Under the pieces are notes generated by a model that made no database searches, was not told the origin of the DNA, and saw only the letters and a program-made list of their open reading frames with translations. A DNA stretch of 64,000 nt from Promethearchaeota archaeon (GTDB taxonomy: Archaea; Asgardarchaeota; Lokiarchaeia; Sigyniarchaeales; SOKP01), in NCBI GenBank assembly GCA_019057795.1, contig JAHLWS010000082.1, forward strand, positions 1 to 64,000. Reading direction: 5' to 3'. Shown here one piece after another: positions 26,731-36,533 of the stretch; the stretch's first letter is position 1; the number at the start of each line of letters is the position of its first letter. The position numbers were made by a program, and so were the translations under genes.

Positions 26731-26810
26731 CTAATTAAATACTCTTAAGCGATAAACTTAAAGAATTTGATAAGAAAAATTTTTGATAAATTGATAATTT
26801 TATTTTTCAA
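26731..26810 (-). promoter_or_regulatory. Promoter/operator copy A, upstream of the 26689 gene
   Basis: Aligns without gaps to 31656..31735, with the core 26759-26797 34/39 identical. Contains a minus-strand TTTAAG TATA-like box and TTGATAA-N6-TTTTCAA. Confidence 0.65.
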
Positions 26811-26843: not shown

Positions 26844-29117
26844 TTATCTGTAAATATCTTCGACAGTTTCTTTAATAGTTTCTTCATAAGCCCTTTTAGC
26901 TTTATTAGCGCCTAATTGAACTTTTTCTATTGCTTTTTCAAAATCAGCTTGAGAAATTTTAACCTTTTTATATGAATCAGGATTTTGGGTATCTATATTA
27001 TCGTCAATAACACCTCTGCGAATGGCCAAAAGTGTGGCTTCCTCGCAGATTGCTTTTATATCCGCTCCTGTATTTCCTTCTAACCTTTCTGCTAGTTTTT
27101 CAATATCAATATTATTATCTATCGGACGATTAGCGAGGTGTATTCTAAATATCTTAATTCGGGAGGTTTTATTTGGCAATGGAACTTCTATATGCCTTCC
27201 GAATCTTCCTGAACGTAGAATGGCAGGATCGAGAATATCGGGTCTATTTGTAGCCGCTATTAAAATGACATCGTTTAATTCTTCTAAACCATCCATTTCT
27301 GTTAAAAATTGTGCTACTACTTGTTCAATAACCCTTGAACCTGAAGATGTTGATCTTCTTGCTGCGATAGCATCAATTTCGTCAAAAAATATAATACAAG
27401 GAGCAGCCGCTCTTGCTTTTCGAAATATTTCTCTTACAGCTTTAGCACTTTCACCAACCCATTTTGATAGAAATTCAGGACCCTTTACAGAAATAAAATT
27501 TATTTCGGTTTCATGGGCAAGCGCTTTCGCCATTAATGTCTTACCCGTCCCAGGAAGACCAAACATTAAAATTCCATTAGGGGGTCTTGATTTCATATGT
27601 TTATAAAACCCCGAGTACTTAAATGGCCATTCAACAATTTCTCTTAATTGCTGCTTTGCGTCTTCTAATCCGCCAATATCTTCCCAAGTTTCAGTTGGTT
27701 GCGTAACAAATACTTCTCTTAATGCAGATGGCTCAATACTATTTAATGCTGTAATAAAATGTGTCATTTTAATTATTAATTTGTTTAAAATTTCTTCCGG
27801 TATAGGTTTATCTAAGTCAATATTAGGTATTATCTCCCTAATCGCAAGCATAGCTGCTTCTTTGCATAAAGCTTTTATATCCGCACCGACAAAACCATGT
27901 GTTTTTTCAGCAATAAGATTTAGATCAATATCCCCATTTAAAGGCATCCCTCGAGTATGGATCAATAAAACTTCATAGCGGCCTTTAGTACCAGGTACTT
28001 TAATTTCAATTTCTCTATCAAAACGCCCTGGTCTTCTTAGTGCTATATCAATAGTATTAACTTTATTCGTTGCACCAATGACTATGACTTCACCTCTCCC
28101 TTCTAAACCATCCATAAGGGATAGAAGTTGAGCCACAACTCTTGATTCTACCTGACCTTTGTTTTCATCCCTTTTATGAGCAATTGAATCTAATTCATCG
28201 AGAAAAATAATAGAGGGGGCGTTATTTTTTGCTTCTTCAAATCTATTTCGAAGATTTTCTTCACTTTGACCAAAAAATTTGCTCATTATTTCAGGTCCAC
28301 TGATATTTATAAAATAGGCATCAGTCTCATAAGCTACTGCTTTTGCTAGTAATGTTTTACCTGTACCTGGAGCCCCATGGAGTAGAACTCCTTTTGGAGG
28401 ATCAATTCCAATTCTTTCAAAAAGTTCAGGATGTCTAATAGGTAGTTCAATTATTTCTCTAATCTTTTGAATCGCATCCTCTAAACCCCCTATATCCTCG
28501 TATGTTATTTTTCCCTGAATTTCTTTTAATCTATGTTCTAAATCACTAATTCCTTCATATGTTATTTCTTTTTTTTTTATTTCGTTAATTTCTTGAGTTG
28601 ATTTTTCGCTAAATAATATTTTTGTATCAAGTTGAATTTTAACCGCTTCAGAATTAGGCATGTAATCAACGACTACAAGGTCAATTCTGCGTGCCATAGC
28701 GTAGAAACTTAAGCTATCTCCTTTTGTTATTGACCTATTTTCTAATTTTCTAGCTAAGGCTTGAGGATCTCGTGGGATTAATGAATTATCTAACCCAGTA
28801 AAGGTTATTGTATTGGCAATATCTACACTGATTTTTTTAATTTCAACAAGGTCATCAATTGAGGCTCCTAAATTTCGTCTTAGGGAGGGATCCATACGAA
28901 TAATCTTTTTTCCTTTATCTTCATTTTTTCCTGTAGACAAAGAAGCAACAGTTTTTTTATTTACTACAGGATGGATGATTTTAATTACATCACCTACCCT
29001 AAGATTTAAATTTGAAACTATCTCTGGGTCTATTCTTACAATACCTCTCCCTGCGTCTTCTTTGAATGCGTCTTTAATCCTTACTTTACTTACAATCCCA
29101 TCAATATTCTCAACCAT
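26844..29117 (-). CDS. cdc48: CDC48/VCP/p97-family AAA+ ATPase
   Basis: N domain ([11 protein letters not shown]), D1 GAPGTGKT...DELD...[10 protein letters not shown]2 GLPGTGKT...DEID...RSGRF, and C-terminal HbYX-type IYR. Confidence 0.96.
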
Positions 29118-29168: not shown

Positions 29169-30182
29169 TTACATCTTAGATAACAATTTTTTAGCAACTT
29201 CGAACGCATAGTTATAATCAAATACCTTTGTACCTTTAGTTTTTGTTGCTTCTTTTAATATTTCTCCCTCCGAATTTGCTTTTAAACGACCTAATGCTAG
29301 TGCTCCGATTCCAAAAATTCCTGGATATATTTCTTCATTATCGTGTTTTGGTCTTATTCCTTCAATTCCATAAGGGGGAACTAAATTGATATCTACTACA
29401 ATTTTCTTACCTTCTAACCTTTCCATAAGATCGCTTGATAAAATTTCAACACCAGCAGCAGCTAGAGACCAGATAATAAGCGCATCTTTAGCAACATCAT
29501 ATCTTTGTTCTTTTTCAGGCGCAAAAATCCCTTTAATCTCGGTTGCATCCTCCCCAGCTTCTTCGGTTACTTCTTTAGCAAGATTTTTTATAAATTCTTC
29601 GTTCGATTTATCCCAAGTTTCAACTAAAAATGTATTCAACCCTTCTTTTGCTGCTAATATGGCAGCAATTCTGGCAACTGGACCTGCCCCATAGATTACG
29701 ACTTTTTCTCCTTTTAAATCACTAATTTTATGTATATTTTTAGCATCGTATAAAGTCTTAGCTACAACTGCAGAAGCAGTAGTATGAGAACCCCTTGGAT
29801 CTATTATTACGGGACATTCAAATGGAGGTACTAAGGATTCAATAACTTTCTTAGCGATTTTTTCCCCTTCCTTTACATTAGATCCCCCAATAAAAAATGC
29901 TGTAGGTGCTTTAGGTTTACGTGAAAATATAGCATCCTGGACAAGTTTAGGAACTTGGTCCGCTGTCATTCTACTTATTGGCACAACAATATCAAAACCA
30001 GCGTCGTAAGCCATGTTAATGTCAAACGGAGAAGCGTTATCATCCGTGTCAAAAAAATAACAAATCTTATCTGAGGTATCCTTTTTCTTTATTTTAATTG
30101 GTGTTAATTCTATTATTGATTTTTTACCAAGAATACTTTCAATTTTACTTCCAATTTCATTATTTTGAGTAATTTTTCTCAT
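29169..30182 (-). CDS. mtdB: NAD(P)-dependent methylene-H4MPT dehydrogenase (MtdB/MtdA family)
   Basis: SPFDINMAYDAGF, VQDAIFSR, FIGG, VPPF...DPRGSHTTASAVVA, DINLVPPYGIEG and GIGALALG match the methylotroph MtdB pattern. Confidence 0.85.
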   Translation of the reverse strand: MRKITQNNEIGSKIESILGKKSIIELTPIKIKKKDTSDKICYFFDTDDNASPFDINMAYDAGFDIVVPISRMTADQVPKLVQDAIFSRKPKAPTAFFIGGSNVKEGEKIAKKVIESLVPPFECPVIIDPRGSHTTASAVVAKTLYDAKNIHKISDLKGEKVVIYGAGPVARIAAILAAKEGLNTFLVETWDKSNEEFIKNLAKEVTEEAGEDATEIKGIFAPEKEQRYDVAKDALIIWSLAAAGVEILSSDLMERLEGKKIVVDINLVPPYGIEGIRPKHDNEEIYPGIFGIGALALGRLKANSEGEILKEATKTKGTKVFDYNYAFEVAKKLLSKM

Positions 30183-30235
30183 CTCACATCGTTAATTAAA
30201 TTATAAAATTCAAAGAAATTATAACTAAAAAAAAA

Positions 30236-30967
30236 TTATTTAGATATTTCAACTTCTACCTCTTCTTCATACTCTTTTTCGATTTCTGCGGTTTTAATAG
30301 TTCTTTTGATTTTAATCTGTTCTGTATCGATGCCTAAATCGTTTGCTAACTTATCTAAACCTTCAAAGTGCCTTAAATCGCAAATAAATAACCCCTTTAA
30401 TTTTTTCCCTTTAATCTCCTTTGCAAGGTTTAAAGTATTCATCATCATCCAAGCTTCTCTAACTTTATATCGAATTTCATCTTCTTGTGAGTCATAATCA
30501 TTTTTGAGATATTCTTTCCATAAAACTAATTGTTGGAAGAGTTCATCCTCGGAAGGAACACCACCGTTTTCTGTAATTATCTCTTTTATTCGCTCTTCAA
30601 GTGTTTGTAGCATATTTCTGTGTTCATCCAATGCCGCAGAAAGATAAAATTCCGCATTTTCAGAGATATCAGCATGTTTAAATCGAATTCCTTTCTTTTT
30701 GAATAAGGTTTTTAGAGGATCGTTAGGGTTTAACGGGTCATCCCAAAAATTTGGTTTTTCTTCTAAAGCAAAATCAGGTGAATATTTGTCTATTAAACCA
30801 TCAATGAGCTGAAGATATTCTTTGCTAATAAGATGTAAAGACCATAGCAAATCTTCCTTTTTTTCTTTAGGAACTTCGAACCACCAATCTATTGGAAACT
30901 CACTTTCTACCATGATAAGCTTTAGATGCTTATCTTTTAATGGCTTTAATTCTAATACTTCTGGCAT
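30236..30967 (-). CDS. Hypothetical protein (paralog of 30992..31609)
   Basis: 243 aa with an AGGAG SD. Shares the EVLELKP start and overall layout with the upstream gene. Confidence 0.8.
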   Translation of the reverse strand: MPEVLELKPLKDKHLKLIMVESEFPIDWWFEVPKEKKEDLLWSLHLISKEYLQLIDGLIDKYSPDFALEEKPNFWDDPLNPNDPLKTLFKKKGIRFKHADISENAEFYLSAALDEHRNMLQTLEERIKEIITENGGVPSEDELFQQLVLWKEYLKNDYDSQEDEIRYKVREAWMMMNTLNLAKEIKGKKLKGLFICDLRHFEGLDKLANDLGIDTEQIKIKRTIKTAEIEKEYEEEVEVEISK

Positions 30968-30991
30968 ATTTTTTTAACTCCTTTTTTTTAA

Positions 30992-31609
30992 TTAAAATAT
31001 AATATTTTGAATAGTATGTTTTTTAGTATAGGAAATTACTTTTACTCCCAAATCTCTTAAATCTGCTACGACTTGAGGGCAAATATCCTCGCAAATATCC
31101 TCCTGAACAAAATGTACAAAAGAAACAACTTCATTTTCAAAATGACGTGCAAAATCTAACATTTTTTTTACGATCCACTGTGGTCTTAGCTTTAAGCTTA
31201 AAAAAATCTCTTTTTCTTGAATTTCTTCGCTTAACATGTCAATCCAATTTTTTAGACTTTGTCCTTTGAAAGATTCTTTATCACTCATATTGTCGTATTC
31301 TTCAAATAATTCATTTTGAAGTTCTTGTTTTTCAACAATCTCTTCGTAAAGATATCCCATTGCATAATCTGGAATATCTACTTGAATATATTGTATTCCA
31401 AGTTTATCTAATGTTTGTGCAAAAGGTGTTTTCTTAAATTCCTTCATATCTACTTGAAAATCTACGGTAACAAAATTAACATCTTTCTTTTTAAGAAAAT
31501 CGGTTAATTTTGATGTATCTTTATTTTGAAAATACCTGCCATTTTCTTTTGAGGACATATACGCTATTATTTTTTTATTTTTTACTGGTTTCAATTCCAA
31601 AACTTCCAT
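30992..31609 (-). CDS. Hypothetical protein (paralog of 30236..30967)
   Basis: GAGGTG SD, then ATG 31609 (MEVLELKP). Confidence 0.8.
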   Translation of the reverse strand: MEVLELKPVKNKKIIAYMSSKENGRYFQNKDTSKLTDFLKKKDVNFVTVDFQVDMKEFKKTPFAQTLDKLGIQYIQVDIPDYAMGYLYEEIVEKQELQNELFEEYDNMSDKESFKGQSLKNWIDMLSEEIQEKEIFLSLKLRPQWIVKKMLDFARHFENEVVSFVHFVQEDICEDICPQVVADLRDLGVKVISYTKKHTIQNIIF

Positions 31610-31655
31610 ATAATAATACACCTCTTTTATTTCAACTTTTTAAAAAAGTATTTAC

Positions 31656-31735
31656 CTAATTGAATTGTCGTAAGCTTAAAATATAAAGAATTTGACAAGA
31701 AAATTTTTTAACATATTGATAAGGAATATTATCAA
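31656..31735 (-). promoter_or_regulatory. Promoter/operator copy B with inverted repeat TTGATAA-N6-TTATCAA (31716-31735)
   Basis: Minus-strand TTTATAT box. Lies in the divergent intergenic region and matches 26731..26810. Confidence 0.65.
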
Positions 31736-31931: not shown

Positions 31932-34478
31932 ATGGATATTTATTCAATTTTAGCCCATCCAATGAGAAGAAAACTCTTATACCTTCTCAAAGAAGAGGGT
32001 TTTATCCCATATACCGAATTAATGAAGAAGTTAGGGATAGAACAAACAGGACAATTAAATTTTCATTTGAAAAAGCTTAATAATTTAGTGAGTAAAAACA
32101 AAAAATCGTATTATTTAACTGATGATGGTAAAAGAGTTTTAAGGATATTAGGATTAAACAAAAGAATTTTATCCGGAGAGGAAATAGAATATTTGAAATC
32201 AAAGGGGAGCGAAATAAACAGAATAGGTGTTATTATCTGTAATTGTAATACAGAAGTTTCAAATGTCCTTAACATTAACTCCTTAGAAAACTATGTAAGT
32301 AAAATAAATAATGTAGTTTCAGTTAAAATCCTTGATAATTTATGTCAAGAAAAAAACCAAGATAAAATTAATAATTGGATTACTGATAACTTCATAAATA
32401 AAATTGTCATCGCTGCTTGTTCTCCTAAAACACATCAACATATATTTGAACGTCTTTTTCAAAATATAATTGATAATGCAAATATTGAGATTGCAAATAT
32501 AAGAGAACAATGTTGTTGGGTACATTATTCAAGTAAAAAGCACATTGATAGTCTTTTAACTCTGAAAAAAGCGCAATTACTTATAGAAGCCTCAGTTAAT
32601 CGAGTAAGTCTTCAAAAACCAATTAAAATAAAAAGAGTTGAAGTTGAAAAAAGTTGCGCTATTGTTGGAGGTGGGATTGCGGGTATGAACACGGCGTTAA
32701 ACTTATCAAGGGCAGGTATCAAGTGTTACCTAATTGAAAAGTCTCCTACATTAGGAGGTAAAGTAGCAAGATGGCAAAAGGTTTCTAAAATGGGAGATTG
32801 CTCTGCTTGTTTCATCTCTGAATTAATTGGGGAAATTGTAAAAGAAAAAAAAATCGAGATCTTGACAAATACGGAAATAATAAGTGTATCGGGAGAAGTT
32901 GGCAATTTTACTATAGGTTTAATTAAAAAACCTCGCTATATTGATGAGACTAAATGCACAGGTTGTAAACAATGTATTGATGTATGTGCTCGAGAGAAAG
33001 TTAATATGTATGAATTTGGATTAACAAATAGAAAAATAATTCACTTTCCTTTTCAATACTGTTATCCTTATGTCCCCGTTATTGAAGATGAAGATATTAA
33101 TAACTGCCTTGAGTGTGGAGTATGTGAACGCGCTTGTGCAAATAAAGCAATAAATTTAAGAGAAAAACCTAAGGAATTAAGAATTAAAGTAGGCGCAAAA
33201 GTTATAGCTATTGGTTCAGATCTTTATTCAAATTTAAAAGAATATAATTATAATCCACGAAATAATGTTATAACTTCAGCAGAATTTGAACGAATCTTAT
33301 CTTCAGATGGCCTAACTGATGGAAAGATCGTAAAATTGTCTGATGGGAAACCAGTAAAAACAATATCAATTATTCAAGAAGTAGGACCTTCAAATTATCT
33401 ATGTGAATATTCGGATATTTTAACCCTAAAGTATATAGATGTTATTAAAGTAAAGAATCTTGATTGTGAAGTTAATGTTTTTTACGATTTAAGTAAACTA
33501 AAAGAAAAAGACGAGATAATACTAAAATCTACTCATCCTAGATTTCTTTACGCTAATAATGTATTAATTGAGACAAGAGAGAATATTAATTATGTAGTTG
33601 CGGATTCTATTGAGTTTCAGAGTGATTTGATTGTTTTAAATCTTAAATTAATTCCAAATGAGGATCTGAAATCTCTAAGAAAGATTATGGACTTCACTTT
33701 AAATGATTATGGTTTTATGAGTGAAGAAACTTTAGCTTCTGGTATTTATGGTGTTGGAACAATATTTGGGCCATTAAATTATCACTCTACTATTGCAACC
33801 ACAAATAACATAGCGTTAAAAGTAATATCACTTCTTTCAAATGATTATTTAATAACAGAATATACTGGAATAGAGATTAATGAAGACAAGTGTGGATTGT
33901 GTAGCCTCTGCGTTAATTCTTGCCCTTACAATGCAATAAGCATAAACTCCGAAAAAATTGCTGTTGATAAGTTTAAATGTAAAGCTTGTGGTATGTGTGT
34001 CAGTGTTTGTCCTACTAATGCCATCGAAATGAATATAAATACATCAGAAAAGATTTTAAAAACGATCGAAATTTTCTCAAAATTCAATAAAAAACCAAAA
34101 ATCATCGCTTTTTGTTGCCAATCGTGCGGTTACGCTGCCGCTGACGATGCAGGATTAAAGAAATTGTTATATCAGCCTAATGTTTTTATAATCTCTGTTC
34201 CTTGTACCGGGCGTGTTGATACTGAATTCATTATTAAATCTTTTGAAATGGGGTTTGATGGAGTTATGATTATCGGCTGTAGAAAGGATTCTTGTAGATA
34301 TATTGATGGGATTGAAAAATTAAAAAAAAGAGTTGGGCTTTTAAAAAAAATTCTAGGACCAAAGTTAAGCAGACGGATAATAGTGATGGGTTTAAACGGA
34401 GTTGAAGGACATATATTTGCTGAAATCTCTACTAAATTCTATAATTTATTAAAGGAGGAGATTAAAAGTGAGGCTTAA
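31932..34478 (+). CDS. wHTH (ArsR-like) - HdrA-like flavoprotein - ferredoxin - MvhD fusion protein
   Basis: Residues 1-80: ILAHPMRRKLL...YTELMKKLG..TGQLNFHLKKL...YYLTDDG. HdrA part: RIGVIICNC, AACSPKTH, NIREQCCWVH, GGGIAG, DCSAC, ITSAEFER. Four CxxCxxCxxxC motifs. MvhD part: AFCCQSCGY, PCTGRVD, GC...C.Y. Confidence 0.9.
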   Translation: MDIYSILAHPMRRKLLYLLKEEGFIPYTELMKKLGIEQTGQLNFHLKKLNNLVSKNKKSYYLTDDGKRVLRILGLNKRILSGEEIEYLKSKGSEINRIGVIICNCNTEVSNVLNINSLENYVSKINNVVSVKILDNLCQEKNQDKINNWITDNFINKIVIAACSPKTHQHIFERLFQNIIDNANIEIANIREQCCWVHYSSKKHIDSLLTLKKAQLLIEASVNRVSLQKPIKIKRVEVEKSCAIVGGGIAGMNTALNLSRAGIKCYLIEKSPTLGGKVARWQKVSKMGDCSACFISELIGEIVKEKKIEILTNTEIISVSGEVGNFTIGLIKKPRYIDETKCTGCKQCIDVCAREKVNMYEFGLTNRKIIHFPFQYCYPYVPVIEDEDINNCLECGVCERACANKAINLREKPKELRIKVGAKVIAIGSDLYSNLKEYNYNPRNNVITSAEFERILSSDGLTDGKIVKLSDGKPVKTISIIQEVGPSNYLCEYSDILTLKYIDVIKVKNLDCEVNVFYDLSKLKEKDEIILKSTHPRFLYANNVLIETRENINYVVADSIEFQSDLIVLNLKLIPNEDLKSLRKIMDFTLNDYGFMSEETLASGIYGVGTIFGPLNYHSTIATTNNIALKVISLLSNDYLITEYTGIEINEDKCGLCSLCVNSCPYNAISINSEKIAVDKFKCKACGMCVSVCPTNAIEMNINTSEKILKTIEIFSKFNKKPKIIAFCCQSCGYAAADDAGLKKLLYQPNVFIISVPCTGRVDTEFIIKSFEMGFDGVMIIGCRKDSCRYIDGIEKLKKRVGLLKKILGPKLSRRIIVMGLNGVEGHIFAEISTKFYNLLKEEIKSEA

Positions 34479-35232
34479 ATTTTTAATTACATCTTTAACA
34501 TCTTGTACTGGATGTATATCCACATTAATATCGTTAGATGTATTTCCACAATTTCTTGAGAGAACGAAAATCGAATATTTTCCATTTATATCTGACAATT
34601 TAGAGATCAAAGAATGCGATGTAGCGCTAGTAGAGGGGTGCGTATCTGAAAAGAATCAAATCGAATATCTTCAAGAAATACGAAAAAATGCAAAAAAACT
34701 ATATGCATTAGGTACATGCTCAGCATTTGGGGGGATTCTTAGCCTCTCAAATAAAAAAGGATCGTATCCCATTTCCAAGTTTGTAGATGTTGATGGTATT
34801 ATACCGGGATGTCCTCCTCCGTCCATACTTTTAGGAAATTGTTTATTGAGGTTAGTTGAGAATAAAAAAATCAAGCTAAGCTTAAAAAATATGTGTTCTA
34901 CTTGTCCTTTAAACAACCAGGCAAAATTAGATTTACCATTAACAATAGAAAAGATTGTTCCAAGGAACAATGAAATTCGCTTTCCGGAAGAAAATTTATC
35001 GTGTTTTTTGAACGATGGGATTTTATGTTTAGGTCCTATTACTCGAGATGGCTGCGACCATCTCTGTATAAATCAAGGATTACCATGTGAAGGATGTTTA
35101 GGTCCGGTTTCAAAGGGGTTTACATCGAATTTAATCAATTTCTTAAGCCTTTTTAACCTTTCTAAAGATTTAAGAAAATATAAAGGGATATATTATAGGT
35201 TCTCAAAATCACCTATGGGAGGGAAGGTTTGA
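34468..35232 (+). CDS. mvhG: Group 3 [NiFe]-hydrogenase small subunit (MvhG-like)
   Basis: SCTGC, LVEG, GTCSAFGG, PGCPP, CSTCP and CFL..GILCLGPITRDGC...C....PCEGCLGP. Confidence 0.85.
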   Translation: MRLKFLITSLTSCTGCISTLISLDVFPQFLERTKIEYFPFISDNLEIKECDVALVEGCVSEKNQIEYLQEIRKNAKKLYALGTCSAFGGILSLSNKKGSYPISKFVDVDGIIPGCPPPSILLGNCLLRLVENKKIKLSLKNMCSTCPLNNQAKLDLPLTIEKIVPRNNEIRFPEENLSCFLNDGILCLGPITRDGCDHLCINQGLPCEGCLGPVSKGFTSNLINFLSLFNLSKDLRKYKGIYYRFSKSPMGGKV

Positions 35233-36533
35233 TGGATAAAGTTGTAGAAGCATGCACAAGGGTTGAAGGTTGTGGAAACTTAAACATTTATTTAAAAAAT
35301 GATGAAATTTATCAAACTGAATTAAACTTTTCAGTATTTAGAGGATTTGAAAATATTTTAGTAGGCAAAAAGTTATTAGATCTTCCAAAAATAGCATCTA
35401 GAATTTGTGGACTGTGCTACGCATCTCAAACAATTGCAAGTTGCAAAGCAATAGAAGATATATACGGAATAGAACCATCACACCAATCAATTTTGCTCAG
35501 AAGGCTTTTATTATCCGGAGAATTAACAAAATCGCACATTATGCATTATTTTTTCCAATCCTTTCCAGATTTATTAAAAATATTTAAAATTAATACTACA
35601 ATTAACGATCCTTATAATTTAATTAATTACAATCCTCATTTAACGACAAATATTTTTAATTTAATAAAAATTGGTTCAGAAATAAATAAATTAATAGGAG
35701 GAAGGGTGCTACATCCAATTACTCCGATTCCTGGAGGATTAATATTCAATCCCACTCGAAAGAGTTTAATTTTTATGGAGAAATATCTAAAAAAGGGAAT
35801 TTACTACATAGAAACTATAATTGAAAATTTTATAGATTTATTTTCTGCTTATGATCCTCCTACAGAATTTAATCTTTCTAATCCTATATATTTCAGCTTG
35901 AAAAACAATACGGGGTTTGATAGATATGAAGGAGACCTCAGAATTGAACAAAATGAAACAACTTACGACGATTTTCAAGCAAAAAATTATTCAAAATATT
36001 TTGATAAAGACCCTAATCTTTATGGGATTATGTTTAAGTCAAATTCGAAAAATGAAATTTTAACAGGACCAATAGCGCGCTATAAGTTAACTCAAAGTTA
36101 TGGGATAGATAAAATATCCGAATATTTAAGCAATTTTGGAAAAAAATGGAAAAGCAATTTATTATTTTTAAACTTTTTACAATTAATCGAAAGTTATTAT
36201 GAAATTCAAAAATGTGTTGAAATATTCAATACTACTTCACTAAAAAGTAGAACAAAACTTAAACAACTGAACTCAATAAAAAAATCAAATGGAATAGGGG
36301 TTATCGAAGCACCAAGAGGCATACTAATGCATCATTATCATTTAAATAAAGCTAAAATCGTTGATCAAGTAAAACTTTTCATTGCAACCGAAATAAATTT
36401 GCCTATTCTTAACAAAATGATCACTGAATATGCTAAAAAGCTATATGAAAAAGAAGATATCGATTCTGTTAAAGAAAAAATTCAAATAATGATAAGAGCA
36501 TTTGATCCTTGCATATCGTGCGCTTCTCATTAA
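35229..36533 (+). CDS. mvhA: Group 3 [NiFe]-hydrogenase large subunit (MvhA-like) with no C-terminal extension
   Basis: TRVEG, RGFE, L1 RICGLC, EAPRG, and L2 RAFDPCISCASH followed directly by TAA. Confidence 0.88.
   Translation: MMDKVVEACTRVEGCGNLNIYLKNDEIYQTELNFSVFRGFENILVGKKLLDLPKIASRICGLCYASQTIASCKAIEDIYGIEPSHQSILLRRLLLSGELTKSHIMHYFFQSFPDLLKIFKINTTINDPYNLINYNPHLTTNIFNLIKIGSEINKLIGGRVLHPITPIPGGLIFNPTRKSLIFMEKYLKKGIYYIETIIENFIDLFSAYDPPTEFNLSNPIYFSLKNNTGFDRYEGDLRIEQNETTYDDFQAKNYSKYFDKDPNLYGIMFKSNSKNEILTGPIARYKLTQSYGIDKISEYLSNFGKKWKSNLLFLNFLQLIESYYEIQKCVEIFNTTSLKSRTKLKQLNSIKKSNGIGVIEAPRGILMHHYHLNKAKIVDQVKLFIATEINLPILNKMITEYAKKLYEKEDIDSVKEKIQIMIRAFDPCISCASH

Follow-up and report, generated by a model that had tools for sequence, protein, structure and literature searches.

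The DNA analysed here (the window) is a stretch of 64,000 nucleotides from a Promethearchaeota archaeon of the class Lokiarchaeia (assembly GCA_019057795.1, contig JAHLWS010000082.1, positions 1 to 64,000), with a guanine-cytosine content of about 30%. It was found that an open reading frame (ORF) on its plus strand (31932-34478) encodes a fusion protein of 848 amino acids (P0001), in which a winged helix-turn-helix (wHTH) domain of the DUF7347 type, a core resembling the heterodisulfide reductase subunit HdrA, and an MvhD domain are joined. The assignment is based on the ORF, on Pfam and NCBIfam domain matches, and on the top PDB sequence matches, namely HdrA and MvhD chains from solved structures. 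Among database proteins, the nearest ones are from metagenome-assembled genomes (MAGs) of Lokiarchaeota/Promethearchaeota. The genes of a [NiFe] hydrogenase, mvhG and mvhA, follow directly. The four-cysteine motif CxGxRD-x(6-8)-CSxxCC of HdrA is not present in this protein, while the other cofactor ligands are kept. A search of 5.8 billion proteins yielded 120 representatives of the same length with 64-95% identity. They are from Loki-, Thor-, Hod-, Hermod-, and Odinarchaeota, and nearly all of them have DUF7347 and FlpD. The family counts given below refer to 121 representatives.

All features of the fusion gene lie on the plus strand. The ArsR-like wHTH (residues 2-72; 31935-32147) matches PF24038 with 47.5 bits against a cut-off of 27.6, with weaker Pfam matches to HTH_20, HTH_24, and HTH_5. 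It is the best-conserved part of the family, with a mean column conservation of 0.84 as compared with 0.80 for the protein overall and for the core. The HdrA core extends from about residue 97 to residue 715, and Fer4 domains are among the Pfam matches of the protein. It is known that HdrA consists of an N-terminal Fe-S domain, a thioredoxin reductase (TrxR) domain with flavin adenine dinucleotide (FAD) and one Fe-S cluster, and two ferredoxin domains with two clusters each (PMC12054007). Here, the N-terminal Fe-S domain (32220-32621) keeps Cys103, Cys105, Cys138, Cys163, and Cys194, all of which fall in columns with 100% conservation across the family and its wHTH relatives. The FAD-binding GxGxxG motif (residues 246-251; 32667-32684) is covered by Rossmann/FAD matches of Pfam (about residues 241-320), and Gly246, Gly248, and Gly251 are invariant in an alignment of 53 sequences (A1). 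Next comes a region (32775-32810) in which, according to the alignment to the HdrA of Methanothermobacter marburgensis (8rvu_a), a DKTFPT segment is replaced (residues 282-287; nucleotides 32775-32792) and a CxxC pair follows. This pair, C290/C293, corresponds to M. marburgensis Cys202/205 and is present in 121 of 121 family sequences. Cys202/205 lie between the MvhD cluster and FAD, and an unknown ligand is held there in cryo-electron microscopy maps (PMC13580544).

The inserted ferredoxin domain (residues 342-402; 32955-33137) keeps the eight cysteines of the HA5 and HA6 sites (Cys342/345/348/352/392/395/398/402), which are 100% conserved in all groups. A flavin-side segment (33270-33293) contains E453, which is aligned to M. 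marburgensis Glu364 (E356 of Methanothermococcus thermolithotrophicus), and the flavin lysine K500 corresponds to Lys417 and K409, respectively. Both residues are found in all 121 family sequences, K500 is also invariant in all 53 sequences of A1, and Y501 is invariant in the family alongside K500, E453, and C290/C293. The roles of K409 and E356 at the flavin have been described (PMC12054007). The C-terminal ferredoxin domain (residues 654-693; 33891-34010) keeps eight conserved cysteines (Cys654/657/660/664/683/686/689/693) and includes the HA3 'shuttle' site, HA3 being located in the C-terminal domain of HdrA (PMC12350162). All 21 cysteine columns of the N-terminal cluster and the two 2x[4Fe-4S] ferredoxin domains are conserved. 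The MvhD [2Fe-2S] domain (residues 724-841; 34101-34454) matches PF02662 (FlpD, E 1.8e-32) and the MvhD chains of 5odc, 8rvu, and 7bkb, and its Cys729/732/758/783/788 are conserved. An AlphaFold model of residues 97-720 has a mean confidence (pLDDT) of 90.4 and a template modelling (TM) score of 0.85 to 8rvy_A and 7bkd_A.

The lost site lies between these features. In a HMMER alignment of residues 92-713 to M. marburgensis HdrA (E 5e-105), Cys394/407/411/412 stand opposite E483, L490, S494, and D495. In M. thermolithotrophicus, the four cysteines are Cys386/399/403/404; this numbering was obtained by subtracting 8 from that of M. marburgensis and agrees with the K409 and E356 named in PMC12054007. 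The degenerate segment occupies 33369-33431, with K500 kept. C491 lies one residue off register and is variable, a cysteine occurring there in 19 of 121 family sequences. By comparison, all 27 ordinary HdrA-MvhD fusions have cysteines in the four columns, and the four-Cys motif is kept by at least seven further HdrA paralogs of the same genome. A return of the degenerate segment to NAD(P)H binding was also considered and was rejected, as the segment has no GxGxxG. The lost motif is only five residues ahead of the flavin lysine; thus, it belongs to the flavin-proximal cluster of the TrxR domain. This is in line with the literature, in which the lost cysteines belong to the single Fe-S cluster of the TrxR domain (PMC12054007), the high-potential electron passes from FAD via HA4 to HdrC/HdrB, and HA5 and HA6 are on the low-potential route to ferredoxin or MvhB (PMC12350162, PMC13580544). 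As judged from the alignments, exactly one cofactor site is gone, namely the [4Fe-4S] cluster HA4 of the TrxR domain. The initial annotation, made from the sequence without database searches, had already reported that the canonical cluster motif is replaced within 33270-33800, a range that includes the degenerate segment, that DKTFPT earlier in the gene is also replaced, and that the FAD motif, the terminal lysine, the N-terminal cysteines, and the ferredoxin motifs are kept. Every one of these observations proved correct, and the three papers support its statement that the cysteines ligate a [4Fe-4S] cluster of the TrxR-like domain on the high-potential route toward HdrC/B.

Is this loss common in the family? 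The motif is missing in 121 of 121 representatives. Between residues 480 and 499, 74 sequences have no cysteine, 41 have one, and six have two, which is the maximum. The old cluster segment has a conservation of 0.68, at the 11th percentile among 26-residue windows of the core, and 28 of the 121 crown sequences still hold the first cysteine. The initial annotation had left room for random losses through simple decay; instead, the loss is fixed in the whole clade, and conservation is strong elsewhere in the protein.

Deeper fused relatives were collected by an exhaustive HMMER search, a second word search, and genome searches. Seventeen deeper wHTH-HdrA-MvhD proteins, 35-52% identical, keep all four cysteines as well as the lysine, the glutamate, and the CxxC pair. 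They are found in Bathyarchaeia (P0124, P0291, and P0292), Thermoproteota (P0294 and P0122), one Lokiarchaeia MAG (P0126), and three other Asgard families (loci L014-L019 and L022), and also include P0123, P0293, P0295, and P0296. Scanned representatives match DUF7347, and the others were assigned by precomputed Pfam lists or by alignment of the full wHTH. Thus, the cysteine loss is not common to all HTH-fused homologs, which the initial annotation had put forward as a test of its reading. In the Cys-retaining relatives, the motif has a compact form, in which one cysteine is followed after about seven residues by C-S-x-aromatic-C-C. Three traits are common to all wHTH forms with or without the cysteines: the FPT segment is replaced, the motif loop has 18 residues instead of about 23, and the second TrxR subdomain is trimmed by about 20 residues, to about 154 as compared with about 173 in ordinary fusions. 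The Cys-retaining deeper relatives also carry mvhG/mvhA, with no hdrBC beside them. Since they share the architecture and the partners, the sensor-like architecture predates the loss and does not need it.

A maximum likelihood tree was calculated with the motif columns removed and with ordinary HdrA-MvhD fusions as the outgroup and root. The wHTH forms make up one clade with 100/100 support. The Cys-less forms are inside a 100/99 clade whose other member is a four-Cys lineage (f18). The loss requires one change in the best tree, as in 76% of the bootstrap trees (range 1-2). One or two of the Cys positions are still held by L020 and L021, which branch close to the base of the Cys-less group. 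These results show, at the level of sequences and their phylogeny, that the cysteine loss is confined to, and fixed in, a crown Asgard clade and occurred on one branch or possibly two. With four cysteines in f18, one or two in the intermediates, and none to two in the present family, it looks like a stepwise erosion. Only 11 unremarkable positions co-vary with the loss branch, and most of them are common to the Cys-retaining f18 lineage. It is likely that the wHTH fusion, the trimming of the TrxR domain, and the separation from hdrBC came first and that the erosion of HA4 followed in one Asgard crown clade. The cluster loss came late, as a consequence particular to its lineage, and is not the signature of a functional switch.

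Downstream of the fusion gene, an mvhG-like gene for the [NiFe] small subunit (34468-35232, plus strand) overlaps it by 11 nucleotides. The product matches PF01058, and its top NCBIfam model is VhuG, below the cut-off. An mvhA-like gene for the large subunit follows (35229-36533, plus strand), with a match to PF00374, matches to ShyA and VhuA of NCBIfam below their cut-offs, and the four Ni-Fe cysteines. The large subunit ends at the histidine after the C-terminal CxxC. In 14 of 14 loci, mvhG is directly downstream of the fusion gene, and mvhA comes next except in L012, where the contig ends within mvhG. An ORF with the CCG motif of HdrB was not found in 12 loci with an ortholog or in the 64-kb window, nor were CCG genes seen in the Pfam tables of four loci. 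As a positive control, three canonical HdrA paralogs of this genome were tested in the same way, and CCG ORFs were detected no more than 1.5 kb from each. No kinase gene is present in the operon of the fusion gene.

The only other [NiFe] large subunit found in the genome is encoded on contig C60; it has canonical His motifs, and HdrC- and HdrB-like genes follow. That hydrogenase (L026 2367-6685) has a small subunit of 438 residues and a large subunit of 434 residues, with an HdrC-like Fer4_8 gene and an HdrB-like CCG gene directly after. Its large subunit stops before the C-terminal metal motif, and may have a selenocysteine or a split VhuU-type end. At two positions where this paralog is canonical, the mvhA-like subunit encoded at 35229-36533 differs: it has a cysteine for the histidine in the N-terminal R-x-E-G-H-G and a glutamine for the histidine after the first CxxC. 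The canonical HdrA paralogs on contigs C5, C22, C87, and C42 (L003, L004, L006, and L007) have two to four in-frame TGA codons, a pattern consistent with the selenocysteine-containing HdrA of Asgard archaea (PMC11227280). The wHTH-fused copy has no in-frame TGA.

A gene for an MtdB-like protein (Mpt_N) travels with the module in at least five lineages, across identities of no more than 37-51%. In the window (29169-31621, minus strand), in L012 (1766-4186), and in L020 (1837-4225), it is placed upstream in divergent orientation, together with one or two paralogs without a Pfam match; in L014 (5811-7523) and L016 (10028-11734), it is directly downstream of mvhA and encodes about 570 residues. 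It could be a regulated target or a metabolic partner. In the f18 lineage (L018 10578-12188; L019 1710-3314), the gene directly after mvhA is not MtdB-like but encodes a bifunctional NAD(P)H-hydrate repair enzyme (YjeF_N and Carb_kinase).

Upstream of the fusion gene, by about 216 nucleotides, there is a perfect 7-6-7 palindrome (31716-31735, without strand), which is a candidate operator. Regulators of the ArsR-like winged-helix kind bind specifically to palindromic operators, which as a rule lie in their own promoters. An identical palindrome lies 244 nucleotides upstream of the ortholog in L021 (2352-2369), and C/G variants are found upstream of the orthologs in L020, L013, and L015. Several orthologous loci have palindromes of the type TTGAYAA-N6-TTRTCAA at a distance of 60-250 nucleotides upstream of the fusion gene. 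The window has a second copy with one mismatch (26791-26810) just past the 3′ end of a cdc48 ORF (26844-29117, minus strand).

How does the fusion protein compare with known systems? It has the same domain order as the HdrA of the MvhAGD-HdrABC, Elp-Hdr, and Fdh-Hdr complexes (5ODC, 8RVU/8RVY, 7BKB, and 9SW2). It is about 30% identical to methanogen HdrA (E 1e-102 to 5e-105; TM of the model 0.85), shares with it the FAD motif, the lysine, the glutamate, the CxxC pair, and the 21 cluster cysteines, and is paired with MvhD, MvhG, and MvhA. It differs in having lost the HA4 cysteines, in a second TrxR subdomain reduced by about 20 residues, in the replaced FPT segment, in the wHTH added at the N-terminus and the MvhD fused at the C-terminus, and in the lack of hdrBC nearby. 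The top NCBIfam model is HdrA2 (NF040770), that of the type Ia fusions such as the one in the HdrA2B2C2 complex of Methanosarcina acetivorans, which also have a C-terminal MvhD. However, the score of 555.4 bits over residues 97-842 is half of the cut-off of 1100, and in the type Ia proteins the complete Cys motif is present throughout (27 of 27) and there is no wHTH. Type Ia HdrA2 works with HdrB2C2 (PMC5861303). Three defining features of a bifurcating HdrA are thus missing from the fusion protein: the HA4 motif, adjacent HdrBC, and a score above the curated cut-off. The closest architecture is that of the wHTH-HdrA-MvhD proteins of Bathyarchaeia, Thermoproteota, and other Asgard archaea, with the same DUF7347, trimmed TrxR domain, FPT loss, K/E/CxxC residues, and mvhG/mvhA neighbors, but those proteins keep the four HA4 cysteines.

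The idea of a hydrogenase reporting H2 to transcription is shared with the group 2b regulatory hydrogenases (HoxBC-HoxJ-HoxA of Cupriavidus necator and HupUV). Group 2b large subunits have no cleavable C-terminal tail, and the large subunit here likewise ends right after the C-terminal metal motif. In contrast, the group 2b enzymes signal via a separate histidine kinase and response regulator, whereas the DNA-binding domain here is on the flavoprotein itself, and the subunits match the group 3 models ShyA, VhuA, and VhuG and not those of group 2. PutA is an FAD enzyme fused to a DNA-binding domain of the repressor type, and on reduction of its flavin the protein changes over between DNA binding and catalysis. 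It combines PRODH/P5CDH with a ribbon-helix-helix, has no Fe-S clusters and no hydrogenase, and remains a full enzyme. By analogy, it may be the best mechanistic model for a flavin-gated regulator, although its fold is unrelated.

Another HdrA-like protein, that of the sulfur-oxidising sHdr system, has neither the ferredoxin domains nor the N-terminal domain and is classed as a minimal form, A0 (PMC12054007). This subunit, from Hyphomicrobium denitrificans (6TJR), has a similar TrxR-like FAD core (structural match, E 1.7e-20). It probably keeps the flavin-proximal cluster; if so, its pattern of loss is opposite to that seen here. The gain and loss of Fe-S domains is common among the HdrA classes of methane metabolisers (PMC12054007), and a missing cluster is therefore not exceptional in itself. 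The unusual point is that solely the flavin-proximal cluster was removed, and this in a form that carries a DNA-binding domain and is coupled to a hydrogenase. A literature search on Asgard HdrA with a helix-turn-helix and on group 3c regulation found no paper on this fusion, and one on DUF7347 found no papers.

What is established at the locus is a full-length, strongly conserved HdrA-MvhD with an ArsR-like wHTH, in a tight operon with its own MvhG/MvhA-type [NiFe] hydrogenase. I consider it most probable, at roughly 55% and on the basis of sequence comparisons, that this is a flavin-based regulator responding to H2 or redox state, wired to a hydrogenase, and that HA4 has become a vestige in it. 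Electrons may enter from the NiFe site via the MvhG clusters, the [2Fe-2S] cluster of MvhD, and the CxxC region to FAD. Without HA4 and HdrBC, the flavin would exchange electrons solely with the hydrogenase side and with the ferredoxin-type clusters HA3, HA5, and HA6. Since neither HA4 nor HdrBC is present, textbook bifurcation between H2 and heterodisulfide appears to be excluded. Most likely, HA4 was no longer needed when the module ceased to supply HdrBC, and it decayed afterwards. The redox state of FAD and the Fe-S chain would be governed by the hydrogenase, and the module would most likely report H2 or redox state to DNA. In Mvh-Hdr complexes, the N-terminal domain of HdrA, its C-terminal domain, and MvhAGD are known to move together in the redox cycle as a rotating 'mobile arm' (PMC13580544). 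With the wHTH attached to the N-terminal domain of this arm, a redox-linked movement could alter operator binding in its own promoter; this passage from redox state to DNA binding would be the weakest step of the proposal. A more specific version, which I hold tentatively and at somewhat less than even odds, makes the HA4-less HdrA core the transducing heart of a self-contained archaeal H2 sensor. The [NiFe] hydrogenase would load the flavin and the Fe-S chain with charge that cannot drain via an HdrBC exit, and the swing of the arm would release or engage the operator.

The initial annotation had concluded that the output to HdrBC has been cut while the input persists, as expected for a sensor. 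The intact input and the lack of a CCG-type hdrB nearby agree with the first part, but the loss is no proof of the second; it fits an H2/redox-sensing regulator without proving sensing. Several points weigh against the regulator as preferred here. The same sensor-like wiring occurs with an intact HA4 in the deeper lineages, and the loss itself says little on sensing. K500 and E453, which are proposed markers of bifurcating flavins, are invariant, and the flavin may be catalytic. All Ni-Fe cysteines are kept, and the hydrogenase may be fully active. The MtdB-like (Mpt_N) gene co-travels across deep lineages, and it could encode a partner in metabolism instead of being a target of regulation. 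With up to two mismatches allowed, the window has four palindromes of the operator type as compared with 2.4 expected, which is not above chance. Finally, the motif was assigned to HA4 by exclusion of the other clusters described in the papers cited here, together with what Wagner et al. 2017 reportedly showed, and not from coordinates; a statement that the motif ligates HA4 was not found in the open literature searched.

The alternative that survives best, although I regard it as rather unlikely, is a catalytic 'trigger enzyme', that is, a non-bifurcating H2-ferredoxin hydrogenase working in either direction via FAD and HA3/HA5/HA6, for example in ferredoxin-driven H2 evolution during syntrophy. 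The wHTH would merely autoregulate the operon, as in PutA-type flavoenzymes, and HA4 would have been lost because the HdrBC branch is unused. The Ni-Fe cysteines and the small-subunit, MvhD, ferredoxin-domain, and FAD features are all kept, K500 and E453 are invariant, and the whole core is about as conserved as the wHTH (0.80 and 0.84). The genome has just two [NiFe] large subunits, and in reconstructions of Asgard metabolism H2 evolution is attributed to Mvh-Hdr-type enzymes (bioRxiv 10.1101/726976). However, a separate hydrogenase beside hdrC/hdrB is available for catabolic use, the scores of the large subunit fall far short of the cut-offs for catalytic equivalogs, and a DNA-binding domain is unusual on a bulk catabolic enzyme. 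This possibility overlaps with the proposed regulator; the two differ solely in whether the main role is turnover or signalling.

It is less probable still that bifurcation or confurcation has been kept with a new high-potential exit, either the C290/C293 dithiol or a substrate or partner at FAD, possibly the MtdB-like enzyme. Besides the invariant K500 and E453, such an exit could draw on the invariant C290/C293 pair, given its location between the MvhD cluster and FAD (PMC13580544), and direct access of coenzyme F420 to FAD has been suggested for HdrA2-type fusions (PMC12054007). A link to the Mpt_N gene in at least five lineages would also fit. On the other hand, the methenyl/methylene couple of tetrahydromethanopterin is low-potential and would make a poor bifurcation acceptor, the degenerate segment has no dinucleotide-binding GxGxxG, and the wHTH would be left unexplained.

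It is very unlikely, judging from the family alignment, that the cluster is still held by other ligands such as glutamate, aspartate, histidine, or the clade-specific Cys512, Cys242, or Cys195. The initial annotation had allowed for a cluster restored in this way, and no consistent replacement was found. An acidic residue occurs at position 495 in 112 of 121 sequences, and E, D, N, or C is common at 483, but there is no conserved set of four: position 490 is L, Q, H, V, E, or K, position 494 is S, N, Q, M, K, or H, no cysteine at all is found in residues 480-499 of 74 of the 121 sequences, and the segment is relaxed rather than constrained. C512 is present in 117 of 121 sequences and not in ordinary HdrA, but it already exists in the four-Cys f18 lineage and thus did not arise as a substitute; in the structural model, it precedes the next strand after the post-loop helix and should sit at the opposite edge of the sheet. 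That the gene is simply a dying HdrA paralog, with the cysteine loss as one symptom, is virtually untenable and already contradicted by the conservation data: a dozen HdrA paralogs do provide high redundancy in this genome, but the ORF is intact, a full-length ortholog without internal stops occurs in 69 of 301 sampled Asgard genomes (49 of 68 in the window's own family), the 64-95% identity extends over several Asgard classes with all other cofactor ligands kept, the AlphaFold model is confident, and the operon partners are conserved.

Database entries for genes of this family read 'hydrogenase iron-sulfur subunit' or 'heterodisulfide reductase subunit A', and in metabolic reconstructions of Asgard archaea MvhADG-HdrABC figures as a hydrogenase that bifurcates or confurcates (bioRxiv 10.1101/726976). 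The wHTH-HdrA copy is widespread and is without the cluster and the partners for bifurcation, and it is not to be counted as such a hydrogenase. The wHTH family offers a natural series in which HA4 is present, partly lost, or fully lost on an otherwise constant scaffold, and this series could be used to test the contribution of the flavin-proximal cluster to bifurcation by HdrA. If the fusion protein indeed binds DNA as proposed, it would represent a new way of sensing H2 or redox state and the first hydrogenase wired directly to DNA. The conformational cycle of a bifurcating enzyme would then have been reused for signalling in the archaeal relatives of eukaryotes.

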